Below are positions 1,105 to 5,216 of a stretch of 5,326 bases of DNA, piece after piece; position 1 is the stretch's first letter; each line of letters opens with the position of its first letter. The translations under genes and the position numbers were made by a program. The notes under the pieces are model-generated. The model was not told where the DNA came from and did not search any database. It saw nothing but the letters and a program-made list of their open reading frames with translations. This stretch comes from a virus (Duplodnaviria; Heunggongvirae; Uroviricota; Caudoviricetes). The DNA lies in the IMG/VR virus record IMGVR_UViG_2713896785_000005. One strand, written 5' to 3'.

Positions 1105-1410
1105 ATGAACCGTGTTCTGTGTGTGGTGATTATTGTCCTGCTGGTAGCCTGTGGTGTGCTTAGTCTGGGGCTGAATCATTACCGTGATAACGCCATAACC
1201 TACAAAGCGCAGCGCGATAAAAAAGTCAGTGAGCTGGAGCTGGCAAATGCAACCATTACTGATATGCAGCNNNNNNNNNNNNNNNNNNNNNNNNNNNNNN
1301 NNNNNNNNNNNNNNNNNNNNNNNNNNNNNNNNNNNNNNNNNNAAGGGGCACAGGACTATATCCGCACTCAGTGTACTAAGCAGGCTTTTTATTATCCGGA
1401 GGATGTATGA
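1105..1410 (+). CDS. Rz: Rz i-spanin (inner-membrane spanin subunit); central part unresolved (72 N at 1271-1342)
   Basis: ATG 1105; [55 protein letters not shown] has an N-terminal TM helix and the [16 protein letters not shown]...LANA-ITDMQ block I recall from lambda Rz. After the N-run the C-terminus [21 protein letters not shown] resembles the lambda Rz C-terminus (...GTQKYINEQCR). Stop TGA 1408-1410. The visible length (101 codons) is short versus about 150 for lambda Rz, so the N-run probably under-represents the real sequence. Confidence 0.85.
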
Positions 1411-1631
1411 AGAAATTACAGGTAACGGTAAAACCTTTTCAGGGAACAATTCCGTTCCGTGTTTTGCAACATGGCCGTGTTCTGCTTGAAGAGGTGTTCA
1501 GAGGTAAATGCACTGAATGTTATTCACGAACATATGAAGTGAATGCCACGCATGAAGAATTCACCGTTGAGTGTGTGATGAATACTGATAAATGCCGAAT
1601 GGTATCCGCTGAATTACAGCCAGTGTGTTGA
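1407..1631 (+). CDS. Hypothetical small Cys-containing protein (74 aa), possible zinc-ribbon-like
   Basis: ATG 1407 overlaps the Rz stop (ATGA); GGAGGA at 1398-1403. [74 protein letters not shown] has CxxC at residues 35-38 plus Cys 56, 62 and 74. No family recognised from memory. Confidence 0.5.
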   Translation: MKKLQVTVKPFQGTIPFRVLQHGRVLLEEVFRGKCTECYSRTYEVNATHEEFTVECVMNTDKCRMVSAELQPVC

Positions 1632-2071: not shown

Positions 2072-2299
2072 TTATATGAACAGCCATCGCAGAGCATACT
2101 GTGTATCATTCTTTTTTATAGTCAACTGACGGGCATATTTTATGTCTGCTGCCAGCTCCCGGCGGCAAGATTCAATGACCCACGCAGAAAAATTTTCTGA
2201 ACCTTTCTGGTCAAGAGCGATGTTAATTTGTTCAATCATCTGGTTTGGAAATCGGATGTTGCGGGTTGTTGTTCTGCGGGGCCGGTTTTTCGATGACAT
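2072..2299 (-). CDS. Small ribbon-helix-helix-like DNA-binding protein (75 aa); probably DUF3950/YlcI-type prophage protein
   Basis: Minus-strand ATG (plus 2297-2299) with GAGGAAAG Shine-Dalgarno about 6 nt upstream on the minus strand. MSSKNRPRRTTTRNIRFPNQMIEQINIALDQKGSENFSAWVIESCRRELAADIKYARQLTIKKNDTQYALRWLFI has a basic N-terminus, a short beta-strand-like RNIRFP and two helices (RHH-like). The NFS motif matches what I recall of the DUF3950 family; not verified. Sits in an AT-rich stretch with its own terminator. Confidence 0.6.
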   Translation of the reverse strand: MSSKNRPRRTTTRNIRFPNQMIEQINIALDQKGSENFSAWVIESCRRELAADIKYARQLTIKKNDTQYALRWLFI

Positions 2300-2994: not shown

Positions 2995-3558
2995 GTGCTG
3001 ACAACGCAAAAACGAAAATTTGCGCTGGCGCTCATGTCCGGGAAAAACAAAACAGCGTCAGCCATTGCCGCTGGTTATTCGGCGAAGACCGCCAGGGTTA
3101 AAGGCTCGCAGCTGGCAAAAGATCCGGAGGTGCTTGCGTTTATAGCCCGTAAACAATGCGAGACGGTGGAGGTGGATGAGGTTCCTGTTTACCGGCAGAA
3201 AAAATCAGAGCAGGAGGATAAACCCCGTCGCCGTGAGGCGGCTGCAATACCACAGCCGGACGAAAACAATCCGGAGATGCCACCGTCCGCGGTGATGTCT
3301 CCTGGTATTGAATATATGGAGGATGGTCTTCCCGATCCGGTGAAAGCGATGGGGCGTCTTCTGGTGGAGAACATTAATACCGACCCCAGGCTGGCGCTGG
3401 ATGCGGCTTATAAGCTGGCGCAGTTCACGCACCATAAAAAAGGGGATGCCGGTAAAAAATCGGCAAAAGGTGACGCGGCGAAAAAAGCGGCTAACCGTTT
3501 TGCGGTGCCACCACCACCCCGCCTGGTGGTGAATAATGATAATGAGGGCAACGGATGA
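2995..3558 (+). CDS. Terminase small subunit (TerS), HTH-containing
   Basis: GTG 2995 preceded by GGGAGGAGG (2984-2992). N-terminus LTTQKRKFALALMSGKNKTASAIAAGYSAKTARVKGSQLAKDPEVLAFI fits the small-terminase N-terminal HTH pattern (AGYS-x-KTA). Stop TGA 3556-3558 overlaps the TerL ATG (ATGA). Lys/Ala-rich low-complexity C-terminal tail. Confidence 0.8.
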   Translation: MLTTQKRKFALALMSGKNKTASAIAAGYSAKTARVKGSQLAKDPEVLAFIARKQCETVEVDEVPVYRQKKSEQEDKPRRREAAAIPQPDENNPEMPPSAVMSPGIEYMEDGLPDPVKAMGRLLVENINTDPRLALDAAYKLAQFTHHKKGDAGKKSAKGDAAKKAANRFAVPPPPRLVVNNDNEGNG

Positions 3559-5216
3559 TACCTGTGTGGAGCACGGCCTGCCCGGACTGGGCAGAGCGCC
3601 TGAAAAAGGGGCTGTCGATTATTCCGGCTCCGATTTATCCGGACCAGGCTGCACATGCACTGGCGATTTTTAAACAACTGCGAATTGTGGATGCACCGGG
3701 TAGCCCGACATTCGGGGAGTCCTGTGCACCGTGGGTGTTTGACCTGGTGGCGGCCCTGTTTGGCTCCTACGATGCGCAGACCGGTGTTCGCCATATCAAG
3801 GAAGTGTTTATCCTTATCCCCAAGAAAAACAGTAAGTCCACGCTGGCTGCGGGGATCATGATGACGGCGCTGTTACTGAACTGGCGGCAGGCGGCGGGCT
3901 ACACCATTCTGGCCCCGACCGTGGAGGTGGCGGCTAACGCCTTCAACCCTGCCAGGGATATGGTACGACGGGACGATGATCTGGATGACCTCTGTCAGGT
4001 GCAGACACATATCCGGACCATCACCCATCGGGTGACGGACACCACCCTGAAGGTGGTGGCAGCCGATCCGAATACGGTGTCCGGTATCAAGTCCGTGGGG
4101 ACACTGATTGATGAACTGTGGCTGTTTGGCAAGCAGTACAAGGCGGAAGACATGCTACGTGAAGCCATCGGCGGGCTTGCCTCCCGTCCGGAAGGGTTTG
4201 TGGTGTATACGACCACCCAGTCGAATGAACCGCCCGCCGGGGTGTTCAGACAGAAACTGCAGTATGCCCGGGATGTCCGTGACGGCAAAATTCATGATCC
4301 GCACTTTCTGCCGGTGATTTTTGAGCATCCTCCTGAAATGGTGGAAAGCGGGGCTCACCTGCTGATGGAAAACCTCGCCATGGTTAACCCGAATCTCGGT
4401 TATTCGGTGGATGAGGCTTTTCTGTACCGGGAGTACCGTAAAGCCCGGGAGGCTGGTGAGGAAGCATTTCGTGGCTTCATGTCAAAACATGCCAATGTGG
4501 AAATTGGTCTTGCCCTGCGTTCTGACCGCTGGGCGGGTGCGGATTTCTGGGAGCAGCAGGGCAGGCGCGTCAGCCTGGACGATATCCTGCAGCGCGCTGA
4601 TGTGGTGACGGTGGGGATTGACGGCGGGGGCCTGGATGATCTGCTGGGAATGTACGTGATTGGCCGTGACAGGGAAACCCGCGAATGGCTGGGCTGGGGC
4701 CATGCCTGGGCGCATGAAACCGCGGTGGTCAGACGGAAGAGTGAGGCATCCCGTTTTCAGGATTTTGTGGCCTGTGGAGACATGACGATTGTCCGTCGGG
4801 TCGGGGATGACACGGCGGAAGTGGCGGAGTATGTGCGTCGTATTCATGAGGCTGAGTTACTGGAGCATATCGGTATTGACCCGTCAGGTGTGGGGCAGAT
4901 TCTGGATTCACTGGCGGAAGCCGGGATCCCCGACGGAATTGTTGTGGGGATAAGCCAGGGCTGGAAGCTGGGCGGGGCCATAAAAACCACCGAGCGCAAA
5001 CTGGCTGAGGGAGTACTGGTGCATGGTGGTCAGCCACTGATGGCCTGGTGCGTTGGCAATGCCCGGGTGGAGCCTAAAGGTAACGCCATTCTTATCACCA
5101 AACAGGCCAGCGGACGGGGAAAAATTGACCCGCTGATGGCGCTCTTCAATGCGGTGTCCCTGATGTCCCTGAATCCGGAACCGAAAAAGAAAGCGTATGA
5201 GGTTTTTTTCATATAA
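3555..5216 (+). CDS. Terminase large subunit (TerL), ATPase plus nuclease domains
   Basis: 553-aa ORF. N-terminal region has a Walker-A-like PKKNSKST motif; C-terminal region has VVTVGIDGGGLDDLLGMYVIGRD typical of the terminase nuclease domain. Start overlaps the TerS stop. Stop TAA 5214-5216. Confidence 0.92.
   Translation: MIPVWSTACPDWAERLKKGLSIIPAPIYPDQAAHALAIFKQLRIVDAPGSPTFGESCAPWVFDLVAALFGSYDAQTGVRHIKEVFILIPKKNSKSTLAAGIMMTALLLNWRQAAGYTILAPTVEVAANAFNPARDMVRRDDDLDDLCQVQTHIRTITHRVTDTTLKVVAADPNTVSGIKSVGTLIDELWLFGKQYKAEDMLREAIGGLASRPEGFVVYTTTQSNEPPAGVFRQKLQYARDVRDGKIHDPHFLPVIFEHPPEMVESGAHLLMENLAMVNPNLGYSVDEAFLYREYRKAREAGEEAFRGFMSKHANVEIGLALRSDRWAGADFWEQQGRRVSLDDILQRADVVTVGIDGGGLDDLLGMYVIGRDRETREWLGWGHAWAHETAVVRRKSEASRFQDFVACGDMTIVRRVGDDTAEVAEYVRRIHEAELLEHIGIDPSGVGQILDSLAEAGIPDGIVVGISQGWKLGGAIKTTERKLAEGVLVHGGQPLMAWCVGNARVEPKGNAILITKQASGRGKIDPLMALFNAVSLMSLNPEPKKKAYEVFFI

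Follow-up and report, generated by a model that had tools for sequence, protein, structure and literature searches.

In the window analysed here, a 5,326-nt stretch of a Caudoviricetes genome (IMG/VR record IMGVR_UViG_2713896785_000005), the lysis gene Rz is directly followed by a 74-codon open reading frame (ORF), hereafter ORF74, and the locus raises the question whether this frame is a gene and, if so, what its product might do. A sequence-only reading had been struck by its cysteines and had proposed a small metal-binding or zinc-ribbon-like protein, expressed with the lysis genes and carried as cargo. The window is the late-region junction of an Escherichia coli lambdoid prophage of the Shiga toxin (Stx)-converting, H-19B type, and its positions 1100-2000 were found in Stx2a-, Stx2c- and Stx1a-converting phages at 98-99% identity (megablast). 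The unmasked copy in Stx2 phage EH2201 (locus L001) was used as the reference for the window. Our best explanation, to which we assign a probability of roughly 40%, is that ORF74 is an authentic accessory gene, with no structural role, that belongs to lambdoid prophages of the Stx type (H-19B-like), and that its product is a cytoplasmic binding protein made late in infection. The features on which the first part of the argument depends are the following:

1105-1410, plus strand: Rz (i-spanin), its stop codon overlapping the ORF74 start and its middle part masked by N bases
1398-1403, plus strand: Shine-Dalgarno sequence GGAGGA, 3 nt before the ATG of ORF74
1407-1631, plus strand: ORF74, ATG start, 74 amino acids, PHROG 2571 family
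1632-1882: non-coding block that accompanies ORF74 in E. coli prophages

ORF74 is a real gene, which we regard as practically certain. The frame of 74 codons at 1407-1631, the GGAGGA upstream of it and the overlap with Rz are all present as they had been described, the ATGA at 1407-1410 combining the start codon of ORF74 with the TGA stop of the upstream ORF. This upstream ORF is Rz, which in the reference spans L001 3506-4000 (164 amino acids, Pfam Phage_lysis, 7.6e-50) and wholly contains a 61-amino-acid ORF (L001 3726-3911) that matches Pfam Rz1 (1.7e-21). In the window, 261 bp of Rz, and with them the entire embedded Rz1 gene, are replaced by a run of 72 N at 1271-1342, which makes Rz appear 63 codons too short. 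ORF74 is not part of a longer Rz or Rz1 frame, since Rz ends with the TGA at 1408-1410 in another frame and Rz1 lies inside Rz, and with no hydrophobic segment, lipobox, Phage_lysis match or Rz1 match it shows no spanin features. Conservation of the frame in related phages had been set beforehand as a check, and the frame proved to be open in all 18 distinct DNA alleles found among 75 IMG/VR loci, the other two frames being rich in stop codons. Pairwise ratios of nonsynonymous to synonymous substitution rates (dN/dS, or omega) were ~0.2-0.45 among diverged ORF74 alleles (Nei-Gojobori), and the N-terminal half of the protein is near-invariant. Stx-converting phages and RefSeq have annotated entries for an identical 74-amino-acid protein (BCI49735.1, WP_000736096.1), the exact protein is recorded on ~1000 contigs, and the gene occurs in ~700 of 5426 complete E. 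coli genomes (megablast), where it falls into two identity classes, at least 99% and 80-90%. The record of phage H-19B carries no ORF74 annotation because its sequence (AF034975) ends inside ORF74.

Are the cysteines the key to its function? They are located at positions 35, 38, 56, 63 and 74, so four of the five positions given by the sequence-only reading were correct, and the remaining one, C62, was off by one. A zinc-ribbon-like or other cysteine-dependent metal-binding small protein could draw on the C35-x2-C38 pair, which in the window allele sits at a predicted hairpin turn, together with C56, C63 and C74, and on position 56, where the close clade has Cys and distant relatives often have His. 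This Cys/His alternation is the sole residual hint of metal, further ligands being unconserved. Among the cysteines, only C35 is invariant within the E. coli/Salmonella clade, C56 is nearly so among close homologues, the most frequent E. coli allele (55 of 75 loci) has Leu and another has Ser in place of C38, and C63 and C74 are restricted to the sub-clade of the window. An alignment of 18 distant relatives contained zero conserved cysteine columns; each of these proteins has 0-3 cysteines, which do not align, and they carry T, A, V, L, I or S at position 35 and mostly P at position 38. Neither was any cysteine column conserved among 26 distinct relatives from loci with the partner gene described below, ten of which are free of cysteine altogether. 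A zinc-finger or zinc-ribbon match for ORF74 was not found in Pfam, and the matches to C2H2 and 4-Cys HYR repeat proteins were marginal: P0053, a C2H2 zinc-finger repeat protein, and P0062, with 26 HYR-4C repeats, were both judged to be spurious multi-repeat matches. What this allele shares with zinc ribbons and CxxC knuckle proteins is one CxxC at a hairpin turn, but it differs from them in having no second knuckle, in a CxxC that varies even among close alleles, and in its fold, a confidently modelled seven-strand structure (AlphaFold) that needs no metal. Given the variable C38, the clade-specific C63 and C74, the lack of conserved cysteines in relatives and the sandwich fold, we abandoned the metal-binding proposal, for which the chance now seems very slim.

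A better guide was offered by the protein family. ORF74 matches phrog_2571, annotated as function unknown, with E=1.2e-28, residues 1-73 aligning with positions 100-172 of the 291 in the profile, and its relatives P0033, P0037, P0049 and P0111 match the same profile. The family is confined to Enterobacterales prophages, in which its members usually stand after Rz and before the terminase genes. When 1.84 billion representatives were searched exhaustively with a profile, 42 proteins were found, of which the true relatives belong to Yersinia, Xenorhabdus, further E. coli prophages and metagenomes. The positions conserved throughout the family (M1, K2, V6, F17, Q21, G33, K34, Y43, V45 and A68) are mostly strand-core residues plus one G-K loop. 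The AlphaFold model of ORF74, built from a 15-sequence alignment (predicted local distance difference test, pLDDT, 87; predicted template modelling score, pTM, 0.73), is a seven-strand β-sandwich with one short helix that spans all 74 residues, and judged from this model the protein is very probably a β-sandwich and not a zinc ribbon. At the N-terminus we found no hydrophobic core, signal peptide or lipobox, and the protein contains no transmembrane segment. The product would thus be an ~8-kDa protein, presumably cytoplasmic, that consists of a single seven-strand β-sandwich domain of PHROG 2571. The family also includes long proteins, such as the 286-amino-acid protein of PhiR46_1 (XSB42772.1) and 280-amino-acid proteins of E. 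coli prophages, which carry the same domain at ~100-170 and, like ORF74, are encoded downstream of Rz, between Rz and Nu1. ORF74 corresponds to this domain only and has neither the helical region at their N-terminus nor their last ~115 residues; the AlphaFold model of the 286-amino-acid long form (P0111) had a pLDDT of 46 and was unusable.

Other searches gave little to add to this picture. Pfam, NCBIfam and PADLOC contained no match for ORF74; in PADLOC, ORF74 and three relatives were unmatched save for one hit at chance level (E=0.035), a result that is neutral since PADLOC models defence and not anti-defence. A PDB profile search with a 24-sequence family alignment returned nothing even at E=10, Foldseek gave no match at E<=0.001 against PDB and BFVD, and a scan of genome contigs with the family alignment produced 11 pattern stretches, none of which was confirmed by tblastn. 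We found no catalytic or metal-binding signature in ORF74. In fold class only, the model resembles small jelly-roll or carbohydrate-binding module (CBM)-like sandwiches, namely CBM35/6/36, the PA-IIL lectin, the hemocyanin C-terminal domain and a domain of lambda J, at 5-19% identity and with no conserved ligand-binding residues identified. This resemblance brings up a glycan-binding or virion-associated accessory protein, in other words a lectin-like or tail-tip-like sandwich, made late, that would decorate particles or bind envelope polysaccharide at release. Sub-threshold fold and Pfam hints are all that speaks for such a role, every match being below significance or family thresholds, whereas the gene is located outside the structural module, is missing from lambda and most lambdoid phages, encodes no export signal, and has a Yersinia relative in a prophage early region. 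We therefore consider a role on glycans or virions unlikely.

Is ORF74 expressed, and does it act, together with the lysis genes? Transcription as part of the late transcript is the simplest reading, and ORF74 would then be translated from the Q-dependent late transcript right after Rz/Rz1, in the window allele with translational coupling to Rz via the ATGA. ORF74 is on the same strand as the lysis genes, has its own Shine-Dalgarno sequence and overlaps the Rz stop codon in the window, and a consensus scan, which is weak evidence either way, revealed neither a sigma-70-like promoter on the plus strand near ORF74 nor a plus-strand terminator after it. The Shine-Dalgarno sequence is kept as GGAG(A/G)A in all 74 IMG/VR loci that cover the upstream sequence. 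The ATGA overlap, however, is allele-specific: it is found in 20 of the 75 loci, while in 54 of them Rz ends at a TAG 23 nt earlier, and the gap between Rz and the ORF amounts to 24 nt in Salmonella and ~107 nt in phage mEp237. The proposed expression with the lysis genes is supported by the position of ORF74, but the coupling that had been part of it holds for certain alleles and not for the gene in general.

A protein made together with the spanins might also serve lysis itself, as an accessory or regulator that tunes the action or timing of holin, endolysin or spanins from the cytoplasmic side. The linkage of ORF74 to Rz fits this, and the small accessory proteins of other lysis cassettes would be a parallel. 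Against a part in lysis, the Rz overlap is missing in the 54 loci just mentioned, ORF74 adjoins unrelated Rz alleles, and relatives were found that do not follow Rz but precede a holin gene, lie in an early region or come after DUF4406 or other unknown genes. Lambda, which has no homologue of ORF74, lyses normally without it. Moreover, Rz and Rz1 work through domains in the periplasm, while the ORF74 product is predicted to stay in the cytoplasm, and a match to XepA is equalled by dozens of generic sandwiches. A lysis accessory is in our view rather unlikely, and according to our preferred explanation, an accessory binding protein, the ORF74 product would take no part in the disruption of the envelope.

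The genomic surroundings of ORF74 bear on its mobility. In E. coli, a block of homology extends from the lysozyme gene through Rz and ORF74 to ~250 nt downstream (window position ~1882), and this lysozyme-Rz-ORF74 block is joined to either an HNH endonuclease and the small and large terminase genes (HNH/TerS/TerL), as is the case here, or a Nu1/gpA packaging module; homology to prophages with other packaging modules stops near 1882. Within the block, ORF74 is more diverged than both its flanks: when L001 was compared with L019, L020 and L016 by sliding identity, nucleotide identity was 77-86% in ORF74, 89-99% in the upstream flank and 94-98% downstream. The 60-mers downstream of ORF74 are near-identical in 73 of the 75 loci. 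The conserved non-coding block at 1632-1882 has no conserved ORF and no Rfam match, and gave folding z-scores of -0.2 on the plus strand and -1.5 on the minus strand. An RNA element in these ~250 nt was rejected on the basis of the empty Rfam search and the weak folding scores, as was an overlapping frame of 46/91 amino acids, which is unconserved between L001 and L019. The block may serve as a linker for recombination or have a regulatory role.

In Salmonella, ORF74 is kept at 80-87% nucleotide identity, while the adjacent Rz has diverged to ~55% and the downstream region is unrelated, and for this reason we regard ORF74 as a mosaic unit of its own. The contexts of more distant relatives are more varied still. 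In PhiR46_1, the family domain forms the centre of the 286-amino-acid protein, encoded between Rz/DUF4406 and Nu1; another relative follows an unrelated 204-amino-acid protein, with a 4-nt overlap, and precedes an Acb2/Tad1-hairpin gene and Nu1; the Xenorhabdus relative is located upstream of a holin gene and beside PixA; and the Yersinia relative occupies a prophage early region between genes for an S24 repressor, a Ser/Thr kinase, ParDE and ERF. These varied contexts, together with the mosaic behaviour, argue for a mobile accessory gene and not for a component tied to spanin function. The idea of a cargo-type gene was therefore well founded, since ORF74 moves as its own unit and its relatives sit among accessory genes.

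The comparison with lambda, which the sequence-only reading had drawn, was also apt: ORF74 fills the slot after Rz where lambda has bor on the opposite strand. Both genes come straight after Rz/Rz1, in a part of the genome that is not essential. Yet bor is oriented against the late operon and encodes an outer-membrane lipoprotein, whereas ORF74 has the orientation of the late operon, no signal peptide or lipobox, and no sequence relation to bor. The bor gene is expressed from the prophage. A homologue of ORF74, or of the partner gene discussed below, is absent from lambda.

Other cargo genes were seen in this slot. In other prophages with ORF74 (L019 4555-4896, L102 4557-4898), an insertion between the DUF3950 gene and the conserved downstream block encodes a putative 113-amino-acid lipoprotein whose C-terminal domain is of the TonB type (Pfam TonB_C, 1.4e-14). 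Genes with the Pfam domain Acb2_Tad1_hairpin were present at L082 5314-5598 and L097 3699-3941, in the same Rz-to-terminase slot of loci that contain distant ORF74 relatives. Acb2_Tad1_hairpin is the fold of anti-CBASS and anti-Thoeris sponges, and its occurrence in two loci with ORF74 relatives suggests that the slot gathers anti-defence cargo.

Does the gene act alone? In many members of the family it is followed, 50-70 nt downstream and on the same strand, by a partner gene of ~70 amino acids (phrog_4280, annotated as function unknown) with the pattern MFVxxGLKxDPDNxGWVLGW...PWHLVGVYATK...YGSHRxGSDDF. The pair is present in a Salmonella locus (L085 5001-5471), a Xenorhabdus contig (L097 1430-1951), phage mEp237 (L098 2696-3264) and two sets of short contigs from public assemblies. 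When IMG/VR was queried with the partner, 63 out of 80 loci had an ORF74-family gene immediately upstream on the same strand (L106-L168), and most of the pairs with recognisable neighbours were located between Rz and Nu1/gpA. In 98% of the locus comparisons, conservation is higher in the partner than in the ORF74-family gene (mean identity 72% vs 48%). The partner was also found alone in Pseudomonas phages; in Pseudomonas phage YMC11/02/R656, the gene that precedes the partner homologue was considered as a family member and rejected (hhalign probability 0.1%).

The pair of mEp237 provides a named example. Its gp60 (YP_007111433.1) is a member of the family (hhalign probability 99.6%, E=3.9e-24) and is encoded just after an Rz-like spanin and before the right end of the genome, although it shares only ~21% identity with ORF74, has no cysteines and contains a 9-residue insertion. 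It is followed by the partner gp61 (YP_007111434.1) and a strong intrinsic terminator that ends the pair, whereas the window has no partner gene; no promoter was detected for the pair in a consensus scan, again weak evidence either way.

When four partner proteins served as tblastn queries, neither the window nor any of the 75 E. coli loci of its type gave a match, and a degraded copy in the block downstream of ORF74 was rejected, as tblastn gave no signal there. ORF74 is therefore a derivative that lacks the partner. A closely related E. coli allele, 66% identical to ORF74, keeps the partner and is far rarer (~32 complete genomes). From these comparisons the window allele appears to be a partner-less derivative under purifying selection, the C-terminal third of which gained C63 and C74, and the ancestral arrangement of the family would have been a two-gene cassette with the more conserved ~70-amino-acid partner (PHROG 4280).

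Loss of the partner raises the possibility that ORF74 is a functionless or decaying remnant of this cassette that is merely carried along by linkage to the lysis genes. The absence of the partner from every locus of this type agrees with such a remnant, and so does the ~200 bp of non-coding sequence in the partner's place. A decaying gene would not be expected to look like this one, however, for the frame is intact in all alleles, dN/dS is ~0.3 between partner-less alleles, the N-terminal half is nearly invariant, and the gene is carried by the ~700 complete genomes found with megablast. We consider decay quite improbable. As an alternative that goes further, PHROG 2571 and PHROG 4280 may together constitute a two-gene cassette, as yet undescribed, where lysis and packaging genes meet in Enterobacterales lambdoid phages. 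The fast-evolving sandwich would provide target recognition for counter-defence or inter-phage exclusion, and the window allele, very common in Stx prophages, would be a partner-independent derivative with extra C-terminal cysteines; this is conceivable, but on the doubtful side.

A further sign of fast evolution came from a single pair of close alleles. Between L019 4001-4225 and L102 4001-4225 we counted 14 amino-acid replacements and 1 synonymous codon change (omega ~2.6), which differs sharply from the background omega of 0.28 (P=5e-5, binomial) but does not significantly exceed the neutral expectation (P=0.06). This sign is no more than suggestive.

We return to the accessory binding protein. 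In this explanation ORF74 would be a stand-alone binding module that acts on a macromolecule of the host or of a competing phage late in infection, in counter-defence or in exclusion. Such a conflict-type role is favoured because the gene moves independently of its neighbours, because it is placed among accessory, toxin-antitoxin and anti-defence-like genes, because it evolves faster than its flanks and its partner, and because it has no catalytic or metal signature. We propose the role in conflict tentatively, at clearly less than even odds. Several points weigh against it. Our literature search found no paper that mentions the ORF74 protein or its family, and no functional evidence. Counter-defence genes are typically expressed early, and ORF74 is located in the late operon. 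The tight linkage of ORF74 to Rz in every E. coli locus examined would fit a role in lysis too. The omega value above 1 comes from one allele pair only and is not significantly above 1, and the argument from neighbouring anti-defence and toxin-antitoxin genes is guilt by association.

The remainder of the window contains the following features:

100-462: phage lysozyme, 3' part (Pfam Phage_lysozyme)
657-752, 755-886 and 1017-1103: three short hydrophobic ORFs of 28-43 amino acids in the interval between lysozyme and Rz
2072-2299, minus strand: gene of the YlcI/YnfO family (DUF3950)
2341-2706: HNH endonuclease
2995-3558: small terminase
3555-5216: large terminase

Of the short ORFs upstream of Rz, the one at 755-886 matches phrog_4906, and the one at 1017-1103 is the C-terminal part of an ORF listed at 930-1103 that matches phrog_4493; small ORFs like these between lysozyme and Rz are labelled as hypothetical proteins in RefSeq. 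After ORF74 come ~440 bp in which no gene is convincing. On the minus strand at 1916-1940, immediately downstream of the DUF3950 gene, there is an intrinsic terminator with a 9-bp stem followed by T7, so that this gene looks like an independently terminated cargo gene of opposite orientation. Between the HNH and small terminase genes, five GTTAAC-centred repeats occur in both orientations at 2796-2924 (AATGTTAAC(TGG)), preceded by a G7 tract (2714) and a C8 tract (2758) in the region 2714-2765. The repeat region is probably the cos site or the terminase-binding region of this HK97-like packaging module.

Besides the masked part of Rz, the window contains further traces of its source assembly. 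A second run of 50 N, at 1675-1724, is flanked by two exact copies of a 22-bp sequence (1653-1674 and 1725-1746: GGTATTGTCGCCGTATTCCTGC), which is single-copy in L001 and related phages. Because the related phages have one copy, the duplicate is a scaffold-gap artefact and not a biological repeat. Lone N bases dotted through the lysozyme gene at 291-336 point to low-quality base calls in the source assembly.

In a megablast search, about one complete E. coli genome in eight had ORF74, which is found in Stx1-, Stx2a- and Stx2c-converting prophages and in the classic phage H-19B, yet its protein is labelled "hypothetical" in every database and already falls within an unnamed PHROG. It is best filed as an uncharacterised member of the small accessory genes that occupy the Rz-to-cos slot of lambdoid phages. 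What is new here is the negative result for the cysteines and the recognition of the PHROG 2571 / PHROG 4280 pair. The anonymous ORF now stands as a selected, foldable protein of a mobile accessory family that often comes with a second conserved small gene. Should ORF74 have no measurable effect, it would merely be another small prophage ORF, and the expected pay-off is modest. If, on the other hand, a role in counter-defence or exclusion is true, this would support the view of the Rz-to-cos region as an accessory hotspot in the lambdoid phages of pathogenic E. coli.

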